Part shown: one piece after another, positions 4,407 through 46,672 of the stretch
Numbering within the stretch: the stretch's first letter is position 1
Layout of the letters: the number at the start of each line of letters is the position of its first letter
Source: Acidiferrobacterales bacterium
GTDB lineage: Bacteria > Pseudomonadota > Gammaproteobacteria > Arenicellales > JAJDZL01
DNA: 64,000 nucleotides
Assembly: GCA_028820695.1 (NCBI GenBank)
Contig: JAPPIB010000050.1
Span: forward strand, 145,683 to 209,682
Direction: 5' to 3'
Notes under the pieces: model-generated
What the model saw: only the letters and a program-made list of their open reading frames with translations
Databases searched by the model: none
What the model was told of the DNA's origin: nothing
Made by a program: the position numbers and the translations under genes

Positions 4407-5474
4407 ATGATTCCCAAATCACCACCGAAAGGTCGAGGTGCGATATCCAATCGCTCGGGCAGATTCGAGAGTTGGGATCACCAGGAATTCGACGACGGTT
4501 GGTATCACGAGGAGTTGCCGGCCTTGAAAACCACAATAGAAAACGACAACGCCCGCACTGTCATCGCACGAAATCGGTCGCCCGACCTGCCATTTGACCG
4601 GTCGATCAACATGTATCGAGGGTGCGAGCACGGATGCTCGTATTGCTATGCGAGGCCCAGTCACACCTACCTCGGCTATTCGGCTGGACTGGATTTCGAA
4701 ACCAAACTGTTCGCCAAACATGATGTTGCGGAAAAACTGACCAAAGAGATTACCGCGGATTCATATCAGTGTCAGACCATAGCGCTTGGAGCCAACACGG
4801 ATCCGTATCAGCCCGTTGAGAGAAACCTGCGCCTGACCCGACAGATACTCGAAGTGCTTCTGGAGCATCGCCATCCGTTGCAGATCACGACCAAATCAGC
4901 GTCGATCATGCGGGACATCGATTTACTCTCAGAGTTGGCACGGCACAACCTCGTCGGCGTCAATGTCTCTATCACCTCACTTGATGCGGGCCTTACAAGA
5001 AGACTCGAACCGCGTGCAAGCGCGCCACACAGTCGTATCAAGGCAGTTTCTCGACTTGTACAGCATCAAATTCCGATTACAATATTCGTTGCTCCGGTCA
5101 TTCCAGGGCTGAACGACCATGAAGTCGAGACGATTCTTGAATCATGTGCACAGGCGGGTGCCCGACGCGCTGAGTGGACAATGATTCGACTGCCGCTGGA
5201 GGTGGCAGATCTGTTTCGGGAATGGTTGAGGACTCACTATCCGGGTCGCGAAGCTCGCGTGATGAGTCTGATCCAGCAGGTCAGGGGTGGCAGGACCAAT
5301 AGCTCTGAATTTTTTGAAAGGATGCGCGGTACCGGACCGATCGCCGAAATGATCCACAAGCGTTTCGTGAGTGCGGTAAGAAAATTCGGTTTGGACACGC
5401 CTCCGGTTGAACTGGACGTTGCGAAGTTTCGCAAGACAGTCACCGGCGCAGTCCAGATGTCACTGTTCACGTGA
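4407..5474 (+). CDS. PA0069-family radical SAM protein
   Basis: The N-terminus KGRGAISNRSGRFESWDHQEFDDGW is followed by YRGCEHGCSYCYARPSHTYLG (CX3CX2C). This combination is characteristic of the PA0069-type rSAM family, which is related to spore-photoproduct-lyase-like enzymes. Confidence 0.8.
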   Translation: MIPKSPPKGRGAISNRSGRFESWDHQEFDDGWYHEELPALKTTIENDNARTVIARNRSPDLPFDRSINMYRGCEHGCSYCYARPSHTYLGYSAGLDFETKLFAKHDVAEKLTKEITADSYQCQTIALGANTDPYQPVERNLRLTRQILEVLLEHRHPLQITTKSASIMRDIDLLSELARHNLVGVNVSITSLDAGLTRRLEPRASAPHSRIKAVSRLVQHQIPITIFVAPVIPGLNDHEVETILESCAQAGARRAEWTMIRLPLEVADLFREWLRTHYPGREARVMSLIQQVRGGRTNSSEFFERMRGTGPIAEMIHKRFVSAVRKFGLDTPPVELDVAKFRKTVTGAVQMSLFT

Positions 5475-5536
5475 TCGGTGACATTCGCGGTAATTCGCCC
5501 ATCCGGATGAATTGACTTGTTTACATTTGAATTGTT

Positions 5537-6823
5537 GTGATGGAAGTAAAAAAGCATGCAGCACCGCTCGCACTGGAAACCAACCAGCCGAAATCCGGCG
5601 AATCCTCTTCTGCGCCCACCGCCTTGGATCGTTCTTTGGTCAGGAGGTTACTCGATTATTCAGGCAACCCTCGAATTGATGTCCAATTATGGGACGGTGA
5701 GACAATATCCGTCGCGAATCAGGAATCGATCGCAACTGTGAAATTCAATTCCCGCTCTGCGTATCGGCGGATGCTCACACAGGGAGAAATCGGTTTCGGT
5801 GATGGCTACAGTGACGGTCAGATCGAGATTGAGGGCGAGTTGGTCGAATTTCTCTGTGAGGCATATCGTGCAAAGAAGCATTCTGATAAAAATCCGAAAG
5901 GTGTGCTTCAGTTGCAGGAACTGTTATCGAGGAAGAAGCCCAGAAAGAACACACTGGCCGGGTCCAAGTCAAACATCCATCATCATTATGATCTTGGCAA
6001 CGAGTTTTATTCTCTATGGCTTGATCGAGAGGCCATGCAGTACACCTGTGCGTACTACCCGATCGAGTCCATGACGCTGGAACAGGCACAAGTTGCGAAA
6101 ATGGAGCACGTGTGTCGTAAATTGATGCTTCAGCCCGGTCAGACGGTAGTCGAGGCGGGATGCGGTTGGGGTGGACTCGCAAGGTATATGGCGAAGACCT
6201 ATGGCGTCAATGTGAGATCCTATAATATTTCACACGAACAGATTGTCTATGCCACCGAACAGGCCCGACAGGAGGGACTTGATGACCTGGTGGAATACGT
6301 CGAGGATGATTATCGCAATATCACGGGTTCTTACGACGTATTTGTTTCGATTGGAATGCTGGAGCACGTAGGGAGTCAGAACTATCAGGCGCTTGGTGCG
6401 GTCGTTGATCGCTGCCTGGCTGAGAATGGCCGGGCGTTGGTCCATTCGATTGGCAGAAATACCCCGGAATTGATGAGCGCATGGATTGAGAAGCGCATAT
6501 TTCCCGGTGCCTACCCTCCAACCATCCGTGAAATGATGGATATTGTCGAACCGTTCAATTTTTCAGTGCTTGACATCGAGAATCTGCGGCTGCACTATGC
6601 GAAAACACTAGGACACTGGCTGGAAAGATTCAACGACAACGAGGAGAAGATTTGCGGGATGTTTGATGACAGATTCGTTCGTGCATGGCGACTGTATCTC
6701 AGCGGCTCGATCTCGGCGTTTCTGGTTGGAACACTGCAGCTGTTTCAGATTGCATTCGCCCGCGGAGCCGACAACAGTATTGCGATGACGCGCGAACACC
6801 TATACCCATATCAGCAAAGTTGA
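5537..6823 (+). CDS. cfa: cyclopropane-fatty-acyl-phospholipid synthase family SAM-dependent methyltransferase
   Basis: HYDLGNEFYSLWLD, the SAM-binding motif VVEAGCGWGGLARYMA, and LRLHYAKTLGHWLERF are typical of the CFA-synthase/CMAS family. The start is GTG 5537 or the adjacent ATG 5540. Confidence 0.85.
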   Translation: MMEVKKHAAPLALETNQPKSGESSSAPTALDRSLVRRLLDYSGNPRIDVQLWDGETISVANQESIATVKFNSRSAYRRMLTQGEIGFGDGYSDGQIEIEGELVEFLCEAYRAKKHSDKNPKGVLQLQELLSRKKPRKNTLAGSKSNIHHHYDLGNEFYSLWLDREAMQYTCAYYPIESMTLEQAQVAKMEHVCRKLMLQPGQTVVEAGCGWGGLARYMAKTYGVNVRSYNISHEQIVYATEQARQEGLDDLVEYVEDDYRNITGSYDVFVSIGMLEHVGSQNYQALGAVVDRCLAENGRALVHSIGRNTPELMSAWIEKRIFPGAYPPTIREMMDIVEPFNFSVLDIENLRLHYAKTLGHWLERFNDNEEKICGMFDDRFVRAWRLYLSGSISAFLVGTLQLFQIAFARGADNSIAMTREHLYPYQQS

Positions 6824-21968: not shown

Positions 21969-22703
21969 TTATCTGAGATCAATCCAATCGTCACTGTATT
22001 CGATCAGTCGCTCTATACGCGAGGGCTCAACAAGAGGCACATCCCGATTGATCGCAAATCGTCTCGCAGAAGCTGGAATATTCCTCAATACTGTAAATTG
22101 TCCGCCGTGGAATTGCCACGTGAAAACATGTCTTCCACCATTCCTTTCGCAACCATTGAGATTGCCGCGAGGATTCAGACCCCATTTGTAATTGCCTGCT
22201 GCATACTGTCGAAGCTCGTCTTCAAAAATCACAAATTGCTTGGTTTCGACATTTCGAATGAGAACGACAATCCGAAGATCATTGTGTTCATTTCTCGCAG
22301 TGTTGAGACGGGCATTCCAGATTGACAATACAGCATCGCCGGTTTTCTGTAAATCCGCGTGCGGGTCACTTATCCCGAAAGAATAATCAGGTGAATTCCG
22401 ACCGGAAATCAGACGTACTCGTTGTTGGCCGAACGGATTGCTGGATTGGATTGTCTTAACCGACCAAGCGGTAGTCTGAAGGGCAACATCAGCCAATCCT
22501 AGGGGACTCGCATAATCCACACCGTTTACAGCGGTTGCAAATATTTCACTGAAGTCATTGCCCGAGATATCCTTTCTGCCAATCGCTAGCCGAAGTACGA
22601 TTTGCTTGCCAATCTCCCTAATGACGTATTCTGGAACTCGACCAATCGGCCATGGACCGGACTGAGAACCGCGGACACCGCGTAATCTCGGGTAGTCAAG
22701 CAT
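21969..22703 (-). CDS. putative type II restriction endonuclease, partner of the adjacent C5 methyltransferase
   Basis: This 244-aa ORF starts 8 nt inside the 3' end of the methyltransferase gene on the same strand. I recognised no family. A candidate PD-(D/E)xK-like element is present: NEHNDLRIVVLIRNVETKQFVIFEDE (D ... E-T-K across two predicted strands). The assignment rests mainly on context. Confidence 0.5.
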   Translation of the reverse strand: MLDYPRLRGVRGSQSGPWPIGRVPEYVIREIGKQIVLRLAIGRKDISGNDFSEIFATAVNGVDYASPLGLADVALQTTAWSVKTIQSSNPFGQQRVRLISGRNSPDYSFGISDPHADLQKTGDAVLSIWNARLNTARNEHNDLRIVVLIRNVETKQFVIFEDELRQYAAGNYKWGLNPRGNLNGCERNGGRHVFTWQFHGGQFTVLRNIPASARRFAINRDVPLVEPSRIERLIEYSDDWIDLR

Positions 22704-23697
22704 TTACTAACTTGCGGATAACAGCTTTCACCATCGGGACCGGTACTGCATTTCCCGCCTGCTTGCGTGCCTGGGCGTCGACTTCGTGCAAATTGAAACT
22801 GTCTGGGAATCCCTGCAGGCGGAACATTTCTCGCGGTGTCAACCGACGCACTCCATTGACCAGCAGGTAGTTATAACTTGCCCCAGCACGCAAGGCGCAT
22901 GAAAACGGGTGGCTGGAAACATTGCCCCCTTTGTTCTCATGCCAGATTGACGGTATGGTATCGGCTTGGTGTGCCTTTTGCCTCGAGTTTCTGATTCTAT
23001 CGCTGACATAGTGCCGCTTGTCAGGCGACTTTTCCAACAATTCTGATAGCGGCTTCATGGATATGTTTGGCTCAGGCCAGTCAAAATCAGTCAGCCCATC
23101 AATCCGGCCAACGATCAGGACTCGCTCCCTTCTTTGTGGCAATCCATAGTCCAATGCGTTTAGAACACGGAAGTCAACTTCGTAATCCAGCGACTGCAGC
23201 ACGGAAATAATGCGGTCCATGATCCGTCCACCATCTGAAGTAACGAGTTGCTTGACATTCTCCAATACGAATGCTGCCGGGCGTTTGCGCTCCAGTATCC
23301 TCGCGATGTCGAAGAAAAGTGTTCCTCTTGTATCCGAAAATCCCCGACGGTTGCCTATGATGCTAAACGGCTGGCAGGGGAATCCGGCACATAGCAAATC
23401 ATGGTCAGGCACATCGGACGCATCGATGCAAGTAATATCACCATTCGGGGGAATACCAAAATTAGACTTGTAAACGCTGCGTGCCGGCTTGTCAATTTCG
23501 CTGGCGAATACGCATTCAAGACCAACCGCAGCAGCAGCGATGTGAAATCCGCCGACTCCACAAAACAAATCGATGAATGTATTCAGGCTGCGTCCCTGAG
23601 TACTTGCATGCCCAATGATGCGTGAATGTGTGGAAACACTGTCTGTCCGTGTTGGAGAATTCATCTGTGATTGATTACTAACTCCGGACATTATCAA
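22696..23697 (-). CDS. dcm: DNA (cytosine-5)-methyltransferase
   Basis: All canonical C5-MTase motifs are present: I DLFCGVGGF, IV GFPCQPFS, VI VLENVK, VIII LPQRRERV, X QAGNAVPVPM. The conserved blocks (GDIT..DVPDHDLLCAGFPCQPFSI.G...GF.D.RGTLFFDIARI) closely resemble the M.HhaI-type subfamily as I remember it. The short variable region does not let me infer specificity. Confidence 0.93.
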   Translation of the reverse strand: MIMSGVSNQSQMNSPTRTDSVSTHSRIIGHASTQGRSLNTFIDLFCGVGGFHIAAAAVGLECVFASEIDKPARSVYKSNFGIPPNGDITCIDASDVPDHDLLCAGFPCQPFSIIGNRRGFSDTRGTLFFDIARILERKRPAAFVLENVKQLVTSDGGRIMDRIISVLQSLDYEVDFRVLNALDYGLPQRRERVLIVGRIDGLTDFDWPEPNISMKPLSELLEKSPDKRHYVSDRIRNSRQKAHQADTIPSIWHENKGGNVSSHPFSCALRAGASYNYLLVNGVRRLTPREMFRLQGFPDSFNLHEVDAQARKQAGNAVPVPMVKAVIRKLVNA

Positions 23698-31060: not shown

Positions 31061-31091
31061 TTGAGTGAGCACGCAATTCGGAATGTATAAT
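31061..31091 (+). promoter_or_regulatory. candidate sigma70-type promoter for the yeeE operon
   Basis: TTGAGT (31061-31066) and a perfect TATAAT (31086-31091) preceded by TG. The 19-nt spacing is long. The element lies about 45 nt upstream of the TTG start at 31135. Seen by eye only. Confidence 0.3.
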
Positions 31092-31134
31092 TTTTTTCCA
31101 TCATGCAAATGCTGACACGTCAAGGTAAGAATTC

Positions 31135-32343
31135 TTGGATGCCCTGATCGGAGTTCCTGTGTTGGTTGGATTTTTCCTGACCTCAGTGATTTTGGGAATC
31201 ACCATAAGTCGAACCAACTTCTGCACGATGGGTGCGGTTTCGGACTGGGTCAACTTGAACGACCGCGGCAGGATGGGAGCCTGGTTGCTGGCAATCGCCT
31301 CCGCCATGGTGGTAGTCTCGTTGCTTGAGGCGGTTTCATTGTTTGAGCTGAACCAGCAAAGACCGCCTTATCGATCGGCAACATTTGCCTGGCTTCGCTA
31401 TTTGGTTGGCGGACTTATGTTTGGCGTCGGCATGACACTGGCGGGTGGATGCGTCAGCAGAAATCTCGTCAGACTGGGTGGCGGAAACATCAAGTCGTTG
31501 ATCACGCTGATTATCGCAGCGGTTTTTGCCTATTTCATGACGAAAACCGTGTTCTTTGAGATCGCATTCTATAGCTGGATGCACCCGCTCTCTATTGATC
31601 TGGCATCAATCGGAATACCCGCTCAAGACATCGGTTCGATCCTGTCGGCAATCTTTCCCGCACTCAGCAAGCCTGTTGTGCATGTATTGATCGCGCTGGC
31701 GGTCGGTGTTGCGGTAATTTTCTTTGTCGCAAAGACCAGCGGTATTCAAGGCAATATGCTGAATATCGTTGCAGGTTTGATGATCGGCGGCTGCGTTACC
31801 GCTGGATGGTACCTGACTTCCGGTCCACTTGGATTGGAATGGGCGGAAGCCGCGCAGTGGGCAGACAATCCGCCGGTCGGAGTCGGCATGCAGTCGTTTA
31901 CGTTTGTCAATCCACTCGGGGAGTACATCAGCCTGGTACTGGAGCCCGGCGGTCTTTCGACGTTGCTCACTGTCGGCATGCTGGCGGCAGCAGGGCTGGT
32001 TATCGGTTCACTTGCTCATTCACTGGTGAGCAGGAATTTTCATGTTTCATGGTTCGCGTCATTTGGCGACTTTACCGCAAATGCCATCGGTGGGGTATTG
32101 ATGGGAGTTGGCGGAGTTTTGGCGCTTGGCTGTACGATCGGTCAGGGCGTCAGCGGCATATCGACATTGGCACTGGGGTCGTTCATTACGCTGGCCGCGA
32201 TCATTTACAGTTGTACCGCAACATTGAAGTACCAATTCTACAGGCTGGTTTACGACGACGCGAAGGTTTCCGATGTGTTCGTCACCACATTGGTGGACAT
32301 TAGATTGTTGCCGAACACAAAGCGGCGACTCGATCCGATCTGA
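31135..32343 (+). CDS. yeeE: YeeE/YedE family sulfur-compound (thiosulfate-type) channel protein
   Basis: 402 aa and polytopic. Three Cys-containing motifs sit in the expected positions: RTNFCTMGAV, LAGGCVSRNL and LALGCTIGQG. These resemble the conserved cysteines of YeeE/TsuA-type transporters. Confidence 0.85.
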   Translation: MDALIGVPVLVGFFLTSVILGITISRTNFCTMGAVSDWVNLNDRGRMGAWLLAIASAMVVVSLLEAVSLFELNQQRPPYRSATFAWLRYLVGGLMFGVGMTLAGGCVSRNLVRLGGGNIKSLITLIIAAVFAYFMTKTVFFEIAFYSWMHPLSIDLASIGIPAQDIGSILSAIFPALSKPVVHVLIALAVGVAVIFFVAKTSGIQGNMLNIVAGLMIGGCVTAGWYLTSGPLGLEWAEAAQWADNPPVGVGMQSFTFVNPLGEYISLVLEPGGLSTLLTVGMLAAAGLVIGSLAHSLVSRNFHVSWFASFGDFTANAIGGVLMGVGGVLALGCTIGQGVSGISTLALGSFITLAAIIYSCTATLKYQFYRLVYDDAKVSDVFVTTLVDIRLLPNTKRRLDPI

Positions 32344-32361
32344 ACGACAGGGGGATAGAAC

Positions 32362-32793
32362 ATGTCTGAACTTTCATCTTGGCTGCCAACCGATCGGCTG
32401 TATGACGAATCATCGTATCTTTGGGTCAAGGAAGAATCGGAAAGTGGAAATTTACTGGTTGGAATCGGGCATCCGACTATCGAGTCTCTCGGAGAGCTAT
32501 CCTACCTTACACTTTCAGGCCCCGGAACTGAGGTCAAGCGAGGCGAATCGGTAGGATCAATGGAAGCAGCGAAGATGACCGGCGAAATTGTGAGCCCGGT
32601 CAGCGGGACCATCGTTCGACGAAATGAGCGAGTGCTGGAAGATCCGCGTACCGCAGGTGGAGACCCTTATCGCGACGGCTGGCTGTTCTCGATTGCACCG
32701 ACATCCTGGGACGAGGACAAGTTTCGTCTGCTCGATTCCGGAAGGTTCTATGACACCCTTCCCGAAGACTTGCGCGGTCCCGCGTCAAATTGA
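32362..32793 (+). CDS. GcvH-like lipoate-binding protein (LbpA-type candidate)
   Basis: H-protein fold strings are present: YLWVKEE....VGI...ESLGEL.Y. The lipoyl-lysine context is SVGSMEAAKMTGEIVSPVSGTIV (K71), and DPY.DGWLF follows. No gcvT or gcvP is nearby. Confidence 0.85.
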   Translation: MSELSSWLPTDRLYDESSYLWVKEESESGNLLVGIGHPTIESLGELSYLTLSGPGTEVKRGESVGSMEAAKMTGEIVSPVSGTIVRRNERVLEDPRTAGGDPYRDGWLFSIAPTSWDEDKFRLLDSGRFYDTLPEDLRGPASN

Positions 32794-32799
32794 CTTGTT

Positions 32800-33915
32800 T
32801 TGGTGAAAGCTCGACTACTGACAGACGACTCGGTTGACGATCAGACCGGATTGTCAGTCGACGATGCGCTGGCTCGCATCAGTTCGGCAGCGTCATCGCT
32901 TACACTGAGACTCTACACCTATCAGCCGTGCGTGCTCGTGGGTCGGTTTCAGCACGTCCGCGACGAAGTTGACCTTAATCGATGCAGGGAACTGCGTGTA
33001 CCCGTCAATCGTCGCCCGACCGGGGGAGGTGCGATCATCATGGGACCTGAACAATTGGGAATCGCACTGGTGGTTCCGCCGGACAGCAGGGCTGTCGGAC
33101 GAAAGTCGGCGTCGCTGATGCGGGATTGTGCGAAAGGTATCGTGAGCGCACTTCGTAGTTTTGGTGTTGAAACTGAATTCCGAGGAAAAAATGATCTGGT
33201 TGTTTCAGGCAGGAAAATCGCGGGCTTGGGCCTTTACCAGGCACAGGGTGGCGGAATCCTGTTTCACGCATCGTTATTGCTTGATCTGGATATTCAATAC
33301 ATGCTGACAGTACTCAAGACCGCATTTGGGAATACACCCGACAGGGGCCTGGATACCATTTCGCAGCGCATTGCGACGCTTCGCGGCGAGGTCAGTCCAG
33401 ATGTGTCCATATCGGACTTGACACAAGCGGTCGAACTTGGATTCGCCAAGGAGTTTTCAATTGATTTTTACCGCGGACACTTGAGTCCGCAAGAGCGGAT
33501 GCTGGCGAATCAGCTTGTCGCCAGTCAGTATGGCAGCCGGCAGTGGATATATCACAGTGGGGCCCGGATCAAGGACCGGGTCGGTTGCTATCGCCTCAGG
33601 ACACAAGGTGGAACATTGGATGTCAGGGCAATTGTGGCAAAAAGCACCCTCAAATCAGTATTTGTAAATGGAGATTTTATCGCTGCGGAAAATGCGATTT
33701 CTGATCTGGAGAGTAGTTTGAGGTGGCACAAGACCGATACAGATGAATTGAACAGAACCATCGAGCGGTCACATCTAAGAAACAGGCAGTTTTGGGATCG
33801 AATATCGGCGGCAGACATCTCACAAGCGGTGCTGGGAGCGATTGGACGAATCGATAGTGATTGCGTTGATCCTGCGCCAAATTCGTGCTTTGTGCGCAGC
33901 GGGATGACGCAATGA
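32800..33915 (+). CDS. lipoate--protein ligase family protein, long fused form (sLpl(AB)-like)
   Basis: LplA/LipB-family blocks RRPTGGGAI and GKNDLVVSGRKIAGLGLYQAQGGILFHASLLL are present. The extra ~120-aa C-terminal region is consistent with a fused accessory domain. The start is TTG 32800 or GTG 32803. Confidence 0.8.
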   Translation: MVKARLLTDDSVDDQTGLSVDDALARISSAASSLTLRLYTYQPCVLVGRFQHVRDEVDLNRCRELRVPVNRRPTGGGAIIMGPEQLGIALVVPPDSRAVGRKSASLMRDCAKGIVSALRSFGVETEFRGKNDLVVSGRKIAGLGLYQAQGGGILFHASLLLDLDIQYMLTVLKTAFGNTPDRGLDTISQRIATLRGEVSPDVSISDLTQAVELGFAKEFSIDFYRGHLSPQERMLANQLVASQYGSRQWIYHSGARIKDRVGCYRLRTQGGTLDVRAIVAKSTLKSVFVNGDFIAAENAISDLESSLRWHKTDTDELNRTIERSHLRNRQFWDRISAADISQAVLGAIGRIDSDCVDPAPNSCFVRSGMTQ

Positions 33916-34892
33916 GTCAGGCGGTTACCTTTATTGATAATCGAATTTCCGAGAACCATGCGGAATCGATCAATCTCAAGCTTCGAAAACGCAACTTTGG
34001 AGAACAGATTGTCTTTCATGCACCTGGCCTGAAGAAGTTCCGGACGGCCGAATACGATTGCCACGATGCATCTGAATTTGTAGCAGTCAGTGTCACTGGC
34101 GAAGCCTGTTCCCTGAATTGCGAGCACTGTAAAACCGGGGTATTGAAAGGAATGCATGACCTGCCATCGGTGAACCAGTCGTTGTATGAACTTTGTTCGA
34201 AACTGCACGATCAAGGTGCGCGCGGCGTCCTGATTTCCGGCGGTAGTGATCGGCGGGGCAGGGTTCCTCTGAAGAAACATATCGCTGAAATGATACGGAT
34301 TCGTCATGAACTTGGGATGACGATCCGCGTCCATCCCGGCTTGCCCGATGAGGAGACCTGTTCAGAATTGGCTGATGTTGACATCGATGGCGCGATGATT
34401 GATGTGATCGGGCATGAGAGGACAATTCGTGAAGTCTATCATCTCGACGCGGATGTCGGAGATTATGAGGCGGTACTTGAGCGATTGGAACGTTACAGAG
34501 TACCTTGTGTTCCACACATCGTCATGGGATTGCATTTCGGCCAGATGCTCGGCGAGGAATATGCACTGGAGATGATTTGTCGTCATCAGTTCACAACTCT
34601 GGTTCTGGTTATATTGATGCCTTTATCGGGAACCCCGATGGCTGCAGTTCAACCGCCTGCACTGTCAGAGGTCTCCGAGTTTTTCGACCTGGTCAGAGGC
34701 CGGCTGCCAACCAGCCCGATCATGCTGGGTTGTGCTCGCCCGCTGGGAAAGGCCAAGGTACTGATCGATCGGGCGGCCATTGACTCAGGGTTGAACGGAA
34801 TCGCCTATCCTGCCGACGGGATAGTCGAGTATGCCCGACATCGCGGACTGACGCCGAAATTCGTCAATGCCTGCTGTGGCGTCAATTGGTGA
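33912..34892 (+). CDS. radical SAM protein, LipS1/LipS2-type lipoyl synthase component (candidate)
   Basis: CX3CX2C triad in VSVTGEACSLNCEHCKTG, and a TIM-barrel-sized protein ending in NACCGVNW. The ATG at 33912 overlaps the ligase stop (ATGA). The assignment rests on context with the H-protein and ligase. Confidence 0.7.
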   Translation: MSQAVTFIDNRISENHAESINLKLRKRNFGEQIVFHAPGLKKFRTAEYDCHDASEFVAVSVTGEACSLNCEHCKTGVLKGMHDLPSVNQSLYELCSKLHDQGARGVLISGGSDRRGRVPLKKHIAEMIRIRHELGMTIRVHPGLPDEETCSELADVDIDGAMIDVIGHERTIREVYHLDADVGDYEAVLERLERYRVPCVPHIVMGLHFGQMLGEEYALEMICRHQFTTLVLVILMPLSGTPMAAVQPPALSEVSEFFDLVRGRLPTSPIMLGCARPLGKAKVLIDRAAIDSGLNGIAYPADGIVEYARHRGLTPKFVNACCGVNW

Positions 34893-34925
34893 ACAAGCAA
34901 GACAAGGGAGAAACGGATAGGATTT

Positions 34926-36017
34926 ATGGCAACTACAGGAATACCGACAAAACTACAGGATCAACACTTTCAAATCAGTCCTGATTACGTTCGAATCAGC
35001 GTTGCCGCCGCCATTGAGCTTGGCTTGGCTCCTGGCAGAATCAATGGCTGCAGCTGCAATTGCATCAATCTGCTGCAGAATTATCCGCAGGGATGTGCAG
35101 CCAATTGCTCGTATTGTGGATTGGCTCGGGAGCGTCCGGGAATTGCTGAGGACAACAGTTTTATTCGAGTCGATTGGCCGCTGTATGAAACCGATCTGGT
35201 CGCCGAGAAAATCGCTGAGAAAGAATCTCGGGACACGGTGGGCAGAGTATGCATTGCACAGGTCCAGGATCATCGGGCGACCGAAGATCTGATCGACATG
35301 GCTTTCAGGGTACACCGCGCGTCGCCAATGGTGCCGATTTCCGCCCTGGTTACTGCGACACTCTTGTCGGAGGATGATTTATACAGAATCAAGGATTCGG
35401 GCGTCGACATAATCGGTGTGGGTTTGGATGCGGTGACGGCTGATGTTTTCGAACGAACTCGGGGAAGACTTGCGAAGGGCCCGCATCGCTGGGATCAACA
35501 CTGGGAAATCGTGCGCGCCGCACGTCGAATCTACGGCCCTATGAAAGTCAATTGCCATCTTATTGTCGGACTCGGTGAAACTGACAAGGAGATGTTCGAT
35601 ATGATCTATCAGTTGAAACAAGAGCAGATTGCAGGATATCTGTTTTCTTTCAACCCTGAACCGGGAACACAAATGCAGCATGTTCCCAGGGCTCCATTGA
35701 AAAGGTGGCGACGAATTCAATTTGTCAAGAACCTGATTGAGGAACATGATCTGGAACCGACGGCACTTGAGTACGATGCTGCCGGAGCATTGATCGGAGT
35801 CAACTATCCAACGGACCCGGCAAGTCTGGTACTCCAAAATGGAGACGCGTTCATGACCAATGGCTGTCCCGACCGTCAGGGAGTGATGGCGTGCAACCGT
35901 CCCTATGGTTCCTACCGACCTGGCGAGGACTTCAGGGACTACCCGTTCTTACCGGATCGCGATGAATTGGAAAAGATCAGTGCGCAGACGCAACTGGAAC
36001 AGATTCGGGCAACCTGA
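34926..36017 (+). CDS. radical SAM protein, LipS1/LipS2-type lipoyl synthase component (candidate)
   Basis: CX3CX2C triad in QGCAANCSYCGLARE, preceded by an extra CSCNC cluster. 363 aa. It is the second rSAM gene of the operon. Confidence 0.7.
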   Translation: MATTGIPTKLQDQHFQISPDYVRISVAAAIELGLAPGRINGCSCNCINLLQNYPQGCAANCSYCGLARERPGIAEDNSFIRVDWPLYETDLVAEKIAEKESRDTVGRVCIAQVQDHRATEDLIDMAFRVHRASPMVPISALVTATLLSEDDLYRIKDSGVDIIGVGLDAVTADVFERTRGRLAKGPHRWDQHWEIVRAARRIYGPMKVNCHLIVGLGETDKEMFDMIYQLKQEQIAGYLFSFNPEPGTQMQHVPRAPLKRWRRIQFVKNLIEEHDLEPTALEYDAAGALIGVNYPTDPASLVLQNGDAFMTNGCPDRQGVMACNRPYGSYRPGEDFRDYPFLPDRDELEKISAQTQLEQIRAT

Positions 36018-36069
36018 CTTGCCGAAAAGCAGCGAGCAGGTGACAGACAACTGATCAAGGAGGTTGATT

Positions 36070-36465
36070 GTGGATAACAAGACGACTGAGCGCCGGCTGA
36101 TCACATCCGGTTCAGTGTTTGAAGAAAAAGCCGGATACTCCCGGGCGGTATGTTCTGATCCGTGGGTTTTTGTTGCGGGTACCACTGGATTCAACTATGA
36201 CACAATGGAAATTTCTGACGACGTCGTTGAGCAATGTCGTCAGACACTGCAGAACATAGGCAAGGTTCTGGCGCAAGCGCAAAGTGGATTTGAGGATGTG
36301 GTTCGTGTCACTTATATCTTTCCACACAGTGAAGACTTCGAGTTATGTTGGCCGGTGCTGAGGGAGTATTTCGGCGATATTCGGCCGGCATGTACGATGT
36401 ACAGCGCAAATCTCGCCGATTCCAGAATGAAAGTGGAGATTGAGGTCACCGCGCTGAAGAGATAA
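36070..36465 (+). CDS. ridA: RidA/YjgF family reactive-intermediate deaminase
   Basis: GYSRAV......FVAGTTG ... C.QTLQNIGKVL..A...F.DVVRVTYIF ... VEIEVTA is the YjgF/RidA pattern. AGGAGG at 36058-36063 favours the GTG at 36070 over the TTG at 36064. Confidence 0.85.
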   Translation: MDNKTTERRLITSGSVFEEKAGYSRAVCSDPWVFVAGTTGFNYDTMEISDDVVEQCRQTLQNIGKVLAQAQSGFEDVVRVTYIFPHSEDFELCWPVLREYFGDIRPACTMYSANLADSRMKVEIEVTALKR

Positions 36466-45856: not shown

Positions 45857-46672
45857 TCACTCGATCGGAGTCTCAGCGGAATTCCCCCATTCAGACCATG
45901 AGCCCGCGTAACCGCGAATCCGATCGTAACCCAAGGACTTCAGCATGGCGTAGCTGTGTGACGACCGATGGTGCGTCTGGCAATAGGTGATAATCTCCTT
46001 GTCCGGCGTAATGCCACTGTGATGCAACATCTCAATGAGCTCATCAGCGGGTTTGAAGCGGTTGTTTCGGGTCGTATCAATCGTGTCAAGCCAATTGATG
46101 TTTCTGGCTCCTGGAATGTGCCCGCCTCGCATCGCTCTGATGTCAAATCCTTCATACTCCATTTTCGATCGGGCATCAAGCAGGCCAATATCCGAATTTT
46201 CCAGATTGGAAAGAATATAACTCTTGTCAGCCTGCGCTTTGCCGTTGACGTGAACCGGGTAGTCACTGCGCTCGACACTGGACGGTGTCGAGGTTTCTAC
46301 CGGGTATCCCTCATTTTTCCAGGCTGTAAAGCCGCCATTAAGTAACGACGTGCTAGGATGGGCCAGCACATCCAGTGTCCAGAGCAGTCTCGACGCACGT
46401 CCATTGCCTTCCGAGTCATAGGCGACAACGTGCATATTCCGTGTCAGACCGACTCGGGAAAATACATCCTGCAAATTTTCCACAGGTGGTAACGTACCGC
46501 TGGTCGGAATAGCCCCAGACACGATGTCAAGATAGTCAACGTGCACGGAGCCAGGAATCCTTTCCCTTTCGTACGCATCAGTGTCGCCGACGTCAACTAT
46601 GAGAAGGTCGGTCTGACCGAGAACTTCTTCAAGCTCAGAAGGTTCCAACAGAAACGGTAAATTTAACGTCAT
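45857..46672 (-). CDS. tandem-domain rhodanese (thiosulfate sulfurtransferase), RhdA-type active-site loop
   Basis: Two rhodanese domains in 271 aa. The catalytic loop YCQTHHRSSHSY resembles the CQTHHR loop I recall from Azotobacter RhdA. Confidence 0.88.
   Translation of the reverse strand: MTLNLPFLLEPSELEEVLGQTDLLIVDVGDTDAYERERIPGSVHVDYLDIVSGAIPTSGTLPPVENLQDVFSRVGLTRNMHVVAYDSEGNGRASRLLWTLDVLAHPSTSLLNGGFTAWKNEGYPVETSTPSSVERSDYPVHVNGKAQADKSYILSNLENSDIGLLDARSKMEYEGFDIRAMRGGHIPGARNINWLDTIDTTRNNRFKPADELIEMLHHSGITPDKEIITYCQTHHRSSHSYAMLKSLGYDRIRGYAGSWSEWGNSAETPIE

Follow-up and report, generated by a model that had tools for sequence, protein, structure and literature searches.

A yeeE-led lbpA-slpl(AB)-lipS1-lipS2 module in an Arenicellales-type gammaproteobacterium, very probably the lipoate-maturation half of a divided type I sHdr-LbpA sulfur oxidation locus

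The DNA considered here is a stretch of 64,000 nucleotides (nt), called the window below, from a metagenome-assembled genome (MAG) labelled Acidiferrobacterales bacterium, and its subject is a cluster of six genes on the forward strand. The lead gene, yeeE (31135–32343, TTG start), encodes a YeeE/YedE-family membrane protein of 402 amino acids (aa). It is followed by an lbpA-type gene for a GcvH-like lipoate-binding protein (32362–32793, 143 aa, NCBI tag OXI60_09045), a gene for an sLpl(AB)-type fused lipoate:protein ligase (32800–33915, 371 aa, with a GTG at 32803 as a possible start), the radical-SAM lipoyl synthase subunit genes lipS1 (33912–34892, 326 aa from ATG) and lipS2 (34926–36017, 363 aa), and ridA (36064–36465, 133 aa, or from a GTG start at 36070). 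The junction sequences give gaps of 18, 6, −4, 33 and 46 nt from yeeE to ridA (the last being 52 nt if ridA begins at 36070), the negative value being an ATGA overlap between the start of lipS1 and the stop codon of the ligase gene. An earlier note on this DNA had described six co-directional genes with this spacing, and the open reading frames (ORFs) and junctions agree with it; Pfam and NCBIfam profile searches likewise bear out all six of its gene identifications. The motifs it had quoted for the H-like protein and the ligase (SMEAAKMTGEIVSPVSG and GKNDLVVSGRKIAGLGLYQ) are both present, and the CX3CX2C motif it had reported in the two radical-SAM proteins occurs once in each, as CSLNCEHC at residue 66 of LipS1 and CAANCSYC at residue 57 of LipS2. 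The first five genes form the conserved module.

The 143-aa protein is on record from a 281-kb scaffold of a metagenome labelled ROBB21-1_SAMN13943214. It passes the Pfam cut-off for GCV_H (PF01597, 85 bits) and lies under both NCBIfam GcvH equivalog cut-offs, scoring 85 against 117 bits and 76 against 116 bits. Three canonical GcvH proteins taken as controls from the tail of the homologue search pass the same two models, with 142–170 and 127–154 bits. The lipoyl-lysine motif EAAKM (K71) is invariant in 26 homologues, and the family comprises 38 cluster representatives at 42–83% identity, after which identity drops to 35–38% with canonical GcvH. A GcvH fold and lipoyl-lysine without a canonical GcvH score are thus combined with a lip-gene context, the two features by which LbpA is recognised. 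By the curated NCBI models the protein is not a GcvH, and on score and context it is of the LbpA type, as the lip-linked paralogue. In a crude neighbour-joining (NJ) tree without bootstrap it clusters with the H-like proteins whose genes immediately precede slpl(AB) in Marinimicrobia and Anaerolineales, and stands apart both from a second LbpA clade, linked to shdr, and from canonical GcvH. Of the phylogenetic placement that the earlier note had proposed, this tree gives the separation from GcvH. The best matches in the PDB are GcvH proteins, and a PDB search with the H-like protein for solved LbpA structures matched only GcvH entries. Two lbpA paralogues per organism are an established possibility, as described in PMC6067878 and PMC10332631. 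Separately, loci of Chloroflexi and Acidobacteriota (L048, L057–L061) hold two, and some three, GcvH-like genes, with one or two copies upstream (in tandem if two) and another directly upstream of the ligase gene or lipS1, and LbpA paralogy may extend beyond two types.

The ligase passes the cut-off for the catalytic domain LplA-B_cat (130 bits, residues 17–215) and matches lipoate-protein ligases in the PDB at E=4e-25. Its C-terminal accessory domain (residues 267–347) is weakly matched, by Lip_prot_lig_C at 23.5 bits against a cut-off of 24 and by LplB at 19.5 bits. The earlier suggestion that 371 aa leave room for a fused accessory domain is supported, albeit by a weak profile match for that part, and with its fused domains and its lipS1/lipS2 and lbpA neighbours the protein fits the description of sLpl(AB). 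The two radical-SAM proteins had been called LipS1/LipS2-type, and here the profiles divide. LipS1 passes NF053742 by a small margin (231.3 bits against 230, model positions 5–268 of 268). LipS2 covers its model in full (NF053743, positions 1–292 of 292) with a score below the cut-off (197.2 bits against 270), yet this is its best family match, the next, BioB, reaching only 47.6 bits, about 150 bits lower. LipS2 is 68–91% identical across 32 related species, all related loci have its gene after lipS1, and the ligase gene likewise keeps its position in each of them.

The product of yeeE matches Sulf_transp (PF04143, E=4e-52). Against the two NCBIfam TsuA models it scores 86 bits (cut-off 400) and 56 bits (cut-off 645), and Pfam scans of the window ORFs found no TusA-like (tsuB) gene beside yeeE or elsewhere in the window; by curated score the protein is not a TsuA orthologue. 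It shares with TsuA of Escherichia coli and Spirochaeta thermophila (PDB 6LEO, 8J4C) the Pfam family and three cysteine positions, which in the alignment with S. thermophila TsuA are Cys30 (ICFNSA site), Cys106 (GGCAS site) and Cys333 (GGCNIG site); the literature gives the conserved TsuA cysteines as Cys22, Cys91 and Cys293. It differs from TsuA in its low scores and in having no adjacent tsuB/yeeD, the tusA of this genome being in the shdr locus described below. The TTG start at 31135 is preferred because the shorter public gene call of 371 aa, which was dropped, would delete the first conserved cysteine. Among characterised proteins, the YeeE-like SoxT1A is required for sulfur import to the sHdr-LbpA pathway in Hyphomicrobium (PMC11582611). 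In SoxT1A, encoded in the shdr-lbpA-sox region of H. denitrificans (Li et al., 2024, PMC11582611), the YeeE/YedE family, the three conserved cysteines and the linkage to sHdr-LbpA genes recur, and the window protein is likewise a plausible importer of sulfur for oxidation. It differs from SoxT in length (402 aa against 330–350 aa, SoxT being compared by its published description) and in its predicted operon partners, which are lbpA and the lip genes rather than sox or soxR. Sulfur strongly induces a YeeE gene in the Sulfolobaceae Acidianus brierleyi and Sulfuracidifex ohwakuensis, and the product of this gene has been proposed as their thiosulfate importer (PMC11323534). Most likely, judging from these analogies, the window protein is a candidate importer of thiosulfate or sulfane sulfur for sHdr. 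The supplementary files of PMC10332631 and PMC11582611 that could be searched contained nothing relevant on Arenicellales, LS-SOB or YeeE.

The earlier note had stated that the 64 kb contain no shdr, dsrE, tusA, sox or gcvTP, and this held in Pfam scans of the window ORFs, in which none of 40 further ORFs matched Hdr, DsrE, TusA, Sox or GcvT/P. It had offered two alternatives, the first being that the partner of the lipoylated carrier is encoded elsewhere, and it is this one that the rest of the genome bears out. The same MAG (prefix OXI60) holds a complete type I shdr locus (L012) on another contig of 133,449 bp, where the gene order is two SQS_PSY genes, lytB, a transposase gene, a 230-aa gene, dsrE, shdrC1, B1, A, H, C2 and B2, a 140-aa gene, a 147-aa lbpA (GCV_H) and tusA. 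The shdr products (237, 453, 345, 253/273, 245 and 314 aa) carry Fer4, CCG and FAD domains in type I order, and the genes form a syntenic shdrC1B1AHC2B2 with C2 and B2 separate, the mark of type I. The L012 proteins match NCBI entries MDE0309345–52 and MDE0309355 [Acidiferrobacterales bacterium] exactly; four of them bear printed locus tags (OXI60_05880, 05885, 05900 and 05925), with the prefix of the window's own tag. By tetranucleotide composition, L012 and the window have a correlation of 0.964, compared with 0.885–0.896 for the nearest relatives. The locus was reached with the fast-evolving sHdrH, for which the search gave a clade-ordered list whose match P0234 leads to L012; sHdrB1 of a relative as the query gave 2047 matches at 78–93% identity across Proteobacteria, and the best 120 of the 2047 were uninformative for the OXI60 orthologue.

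Relatives were collected from the neighbourhoods of homologues and from one scan of GTDB species genomes, and were tabulated by tblastn. The resulting set consists of 32 related gammaproteobacterial species labelled "Arenicellales bacterium", mostly sponge-derived MAGs, many of them closed chromosomes. Order and orientation of yeeE and lbpA are the same in all 32, and slpl(AB), lipS1 and lipS2 are also present in 31 of them, the locus of the remaining species (L043) being truncated by a contig end. The survey of yeeE-lbpA adjacency that the earlier note had suggested shows the coupling kept throughout: in 31/32 species yeeE immediately precedes lbpA, in the remaining one it lies 1.4 kb upstream, and the gap is 18–42 nt in 30 of the 31 measured. 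The partner genes are close by in many of these genomes, dsrE-shdrC1B1AH(C2B2) being encoded on the opposite strand no more than 10 kb upstream in 14/32 species. In a further 12/32, including the two closest closed chromosomes (3,709,782 and 3,820,606 bp), sHdrH, sHdrB1 or sHdrB2 were assigned to the module's contig by its identical length, so that sHdr is on that contig in all 26 of the 32 species that could be checked. The arrangement is most compact in L032, where tusA-lbpA-140aa-shdrB2C2HAB1C1-dsrE-230aa diverges from yeeE-lbpA-slpl(AB)-lipS1-lipS2. Beyond this clade, Marinimicrobia, Anaerolineales and Chloroflexia keep the order lbpA-slpl(AB)-lipS1-lipS2 with no yeeE; the Marinimicrobia loci and L053, from a MAG of an uncultured bacterium, carry clear shdr genes (B1, A, H) upstream, and the Chloroflexi loci gave only a weak shdrC2-like match.

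The usual order in the relatives is shdr, dsrE, the 230-aa gene, lytB and SQS_PSY, all on the minus strand, and then yeeE and the rest of the module on the plus strand. In the window's subclade the shdr half still stands beside lytB and SQS_PSY (L012, L013), and the yeeE-lip half is flanked by a cytochrome c gene on one side and by ridA/dsbA on the other. This places the breakpoint between SQS_PSY and yeeE, and the linked state is probably the ancestral one. Within L012, the interval from lytB to the 230-aa gene contains a transposase gene (PF21804, L012:5028–5315, minus strand) next to a DUF1302 gene, which fits a local rearrangement in the window's lineage. The 230-aa gene itself (5500–6192, OXI60_05925) has no Pfam match and a weak similarity to glutamine amidotransferases (NF005458, 55.6 bits), and in its orthologue in L010 the usual position of the catalytic cysteine reads GFGTGTQ; its product is probably the LipX of the literature, which would have remained with the shdr half when the locus split. 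As for the name of the source organism, nearly all close relatives (32 species, LbpA-type protein 47–83% identical) are labelled Arenicellales, and the NCBI label Acidiferrobacterales is probably outdated.

Upstream of yeeE lies a candidate promoter element, TCGGAATGTATAATTTTT (31078–31095, plus strand), containing an exact TATAAT some 47 nt ahead of the TTG start. It is unique in the window, and 14–18-mers of the box are kept in 5–6 of the 6 loci of the window's subclade; from the letters alone, a promoter function may be proposed for it. The box was not reported by the consensus promoter scan; over the cluster as a whole, scans for consensus promoters and terminators yielded site numbers no higher than shuffled sequence does. 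As these scans are at chance level, it is from gene spacing and synteny that an operon is predicted, with co-transcription of its genes. In the shdr loci of Arenicellales-type MAGs, a palindrome, TATTAG(C/A)AA(A/T)TTCTAATA, occurs about 70–95 nt upstream of dsrE in 13 loci (L012:6224–6241, L013:6306–6323 and 11 others, e.g. L029:5354 and L023:5557). It is a candidate for the operator at the shdr promoter, and yeeE has a similar box about 100 nt upstream in L032 and L039 alone.

Taken together, the locus is very probably the lipoate-carrier maturation module of type I sHdr-LbpA sulfur oxidation, split from the shdr genes by rearrangement in this lineage. LbpA, sLpl(AB) and LipS1/S2 have been tied experimentally to sHdr sulfur oxidation (PMC6067878, PMC10332631), and the earlier recognition of the gene set as the known LbpA/sLpl(AB)/LipS1-LipS2 assembly route is upheld by the profiles, the synteny and the shdr genes in the genome. 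With biochemical roles carried over from characterised proteins of Thioalkalivibrio, Hyphomicrobium and Thermococcus, the ligase would put octanoate or lipoate on the lysine of the LbpA-type protein, and LipS1 and LipS2 together would add two sulfur atoms. The lipoylated carrier would then work with the sHdr complex, encoded on the other contig with DsrE, TusA and a second LbpA, which would oxidise protein-bound sulfane sulfur to sulfite. The YeeE-family protein would, most likely, import the thiosulfate or sulfane sulfur that feeds the pathway.

Several observations weigh against this interpretation. LipS2 falls short of its curated cut-off of 270 bits, and the NJ tree, besides being crude, was built without the reference LbpA1/LbpA2 sequences (TK90_0638, TK90_0640, Hden_0696). 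The yeeE gene shares its predicted operon with the cofactor-assembly genes and not with shdr. The dsrE palindrome is not present upstream of the window's yeeE, and co-regulation of the two loci is unsupported because no operator shared by yeeE and shdr was found. No Pfam or NCBIfam annotation in either locus suggests the flavoprotein LipT, for which no dedicated search was made; lipT is reported in about half of LipS1/S2 bacteria. Finally, MAG binning could in principle have joined contigs of two organisms, although the composition and the relatives with both halves on a single chromosome argue against mis-binning.

It is very unlikely that the module serves housekeeping lipoylation rather than a use dedicated to sHdr. 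Such a role would suit the report that only 42% of LipS1/S2-containing bacteria have sHdr (PMC10332631), as well as the GcvH proteins that head the PDB matches. The H-like protein nevertheless scores well below GcvH cut-offs that canonical controls pass, no gcvT or gcvP was found nearby in the Pfam scans of the window, and shdr adjoins the module in 14 of the related species as well as in other phyla, and is encoded in this genome itself; moreover, canonical lipoyl domains are not clients of the sLpl(AB) ligases that have been characterised (PMC6067878). The other two explanations turn on yeeE. The second alternative of the earlier note was a transporter-coupled lipoyl carrier of a kind not yet described, in which the lipoyl arm would take sulfur straight from the channel in a self-contained system independent of sHdr. 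The tight spacing of yeeE and lbpA favours it, as do the predicted operon that the transporter gene shares with the carrier gene rather than with shdr and the lack of shdr within 10 kb in 18/32 species, including all 6 loci of the window's subclade. Yet sHdr is encoded in every genome that could be checked and in the window's own MAG, the lbpA-lip module occurs beside shdr without yeeE in other phyla, and a YeeE-like importer for sHdr-LbpA is already established in Hyphomicrobium (PMC11582611), so that the idea found no support here and we regard it as highly improbable.

Yet another use of the transporter can be imagined, in which YeeE supplies sulfur for assembly of the cofactor, for instance by replenishing the donor sulfur of LipS1/LipS2, and not the substrate of sHdr. 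The operon partners of yeeE are indeed the assembly genes and not the oxidising enzyme, and LipS1/S2 insert two sulfur atoms per cofactor (PMC10332631). Catalytic amounts of a cofactor would hardly need a dedicated importer, however, and the LipS1/S2 modules of other phyla do without yeeE. In L032, furthermore, yeeE diverges from the shdr-side genes across only about 200 nt, which suggests a single regulatory unit for the pathway. A supply role of this kind thus has little to commend it, and import of the substrate for sHdr-LbpA oxidation is much the better account of yeeE.

The closest known counterpart is the sHdr-LbpA locus of Hyphomicrobium denitrificans and Thioalkalivibrio sp. K90mix, as described by Cao et al., 2018 (PMC6067878) and Tanabe et al., 2023 (PMC10332631). 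Both have a non-GcvH carrier, a fused ligase, and LipS1 with LipS2; the window genome shares with it type I shdrC1B1AHC2B2, dsrE, tusA, two lbpA paralogues and a LipX-like amidotransferase homologue beside dsrE. The differences are that the window module is on another contig than shdr, that it is led by a yeeE-family gene, that its order is lbpA-slpl(AB)-lipS1-lipS2 where lipS1-slpl(AB)-lipS2-lipT is commonly reported, and that neither locus showed a recognisable lipT or lipY (lipT without a dedicated search). In Thermococcus kodakarensis, LplAB with LipS1/LipS2 (Neti et al., 2022, PMC9585515) likewise pairs two radical-SAM proteins, jointly the lipoyl synthase, with an Lpl-type ligase. That archaeal system serves general lipoylation and its ligase is split, whereas the window's ligase is fused and has a dedicated LbpA as its predicted client.

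The sixth gene, ridA, is best regarded as a neighbour of the module. Its product is a clear family member (PF01042, E=1e-24), and the earlier note had counted it in the operon. A strong Shine-Dalgarno sequence, AAGGAGG, stands 6 nt before the GTG at 36070, the start used in the public gene call. The gene occurs at this position only in the window's subclade, to which the flanks (cytochrome c gene, ridA, dsbA and mpl) are also confined; other lineages have no ridA there. In L007 and L008 the lipS2-ridA junction is interrupted by a gene for a 1355-aa Eco57I-type restriction enzyme and small ORFs, and this insertion is recent. Operon membership was dropped in view of the separate Shine-Dalgarno sequence, the absence from the module in most relatives and the interruption by the restriction gene, and because ridA is missing in other lineages and separated in L007 and L008, it is placed outside the module. 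The inserted block itself (L007:12700–17651, L008:7055–12006) comprises the Eco57I/N6-methylase restriction-modification gene, small ORFs and a RidA fragment, and represents one relative.

The remainder of the window is ordinary gammaproteobacterial housekeeping (leuS, aspS, PBP1, tldD/pmbA, mpl, dsbA, fumarase, relA/spoT and amino-acid ABC transport). Its sole sulfur-related extra is a two-domain rhodanese (45857–46672, minus strand), 10 kb downstream of the module, with a weak SseA-type match (103 bits, cut-off 250). For sHdr pathways, rhodaneses have been put forward as primary acceptors of sulfur. A third radical-SAM gene (4407–5474, plus strand) belongs to the PA0069 family (484 bits, cut-off 360) and has no connection with lipoate synthesis. 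In the region 21969–23697 (minus strand) a gene for a C-5 cytosine DNA methylase (333 aa) overlaps a 244-aa ORF without a Pfam match; the two are absent at the corresponding position in the relatives L002 and L003, and are probably a restriction-modification pair inserted between the CN-hydrolase gene and tldD.

The module itself is already known, and what is new is modest, namely the tight coupling of yeeE and lbpA across a whole clade. An orphan lbpA-slpl(AB)-lipS1-lipS2 cluster calls for a check of the whole genome before a new use of lipoate is proposed. In this clade gene order and composition differ from the model organisms, with no lipT or lipY recognised and the LipX-like gene on the shdr side. 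The clade-wide joining of yeeE to the LbpA maturation operon provides a concrete candidate for the poorly understood step that brings sulfur into the cytoplasm in sHdr oxidation. Somewhat more doubtfully, we suggest that these YeeE proteins may form a separate, undescribed subfamily, a dedicated importer of type I sHdr in sponge-associated Arenicellales-type Gammaproteobacteria that is transcribed with the LbpA maturation genes. If so, carrier supply and substrate entry would be set together through transcription of yeeE-lbpA-lip, and the subfamily would fill a gap in the literature, SoxT importers being rare among type I shdr genomes (PMC11582611).

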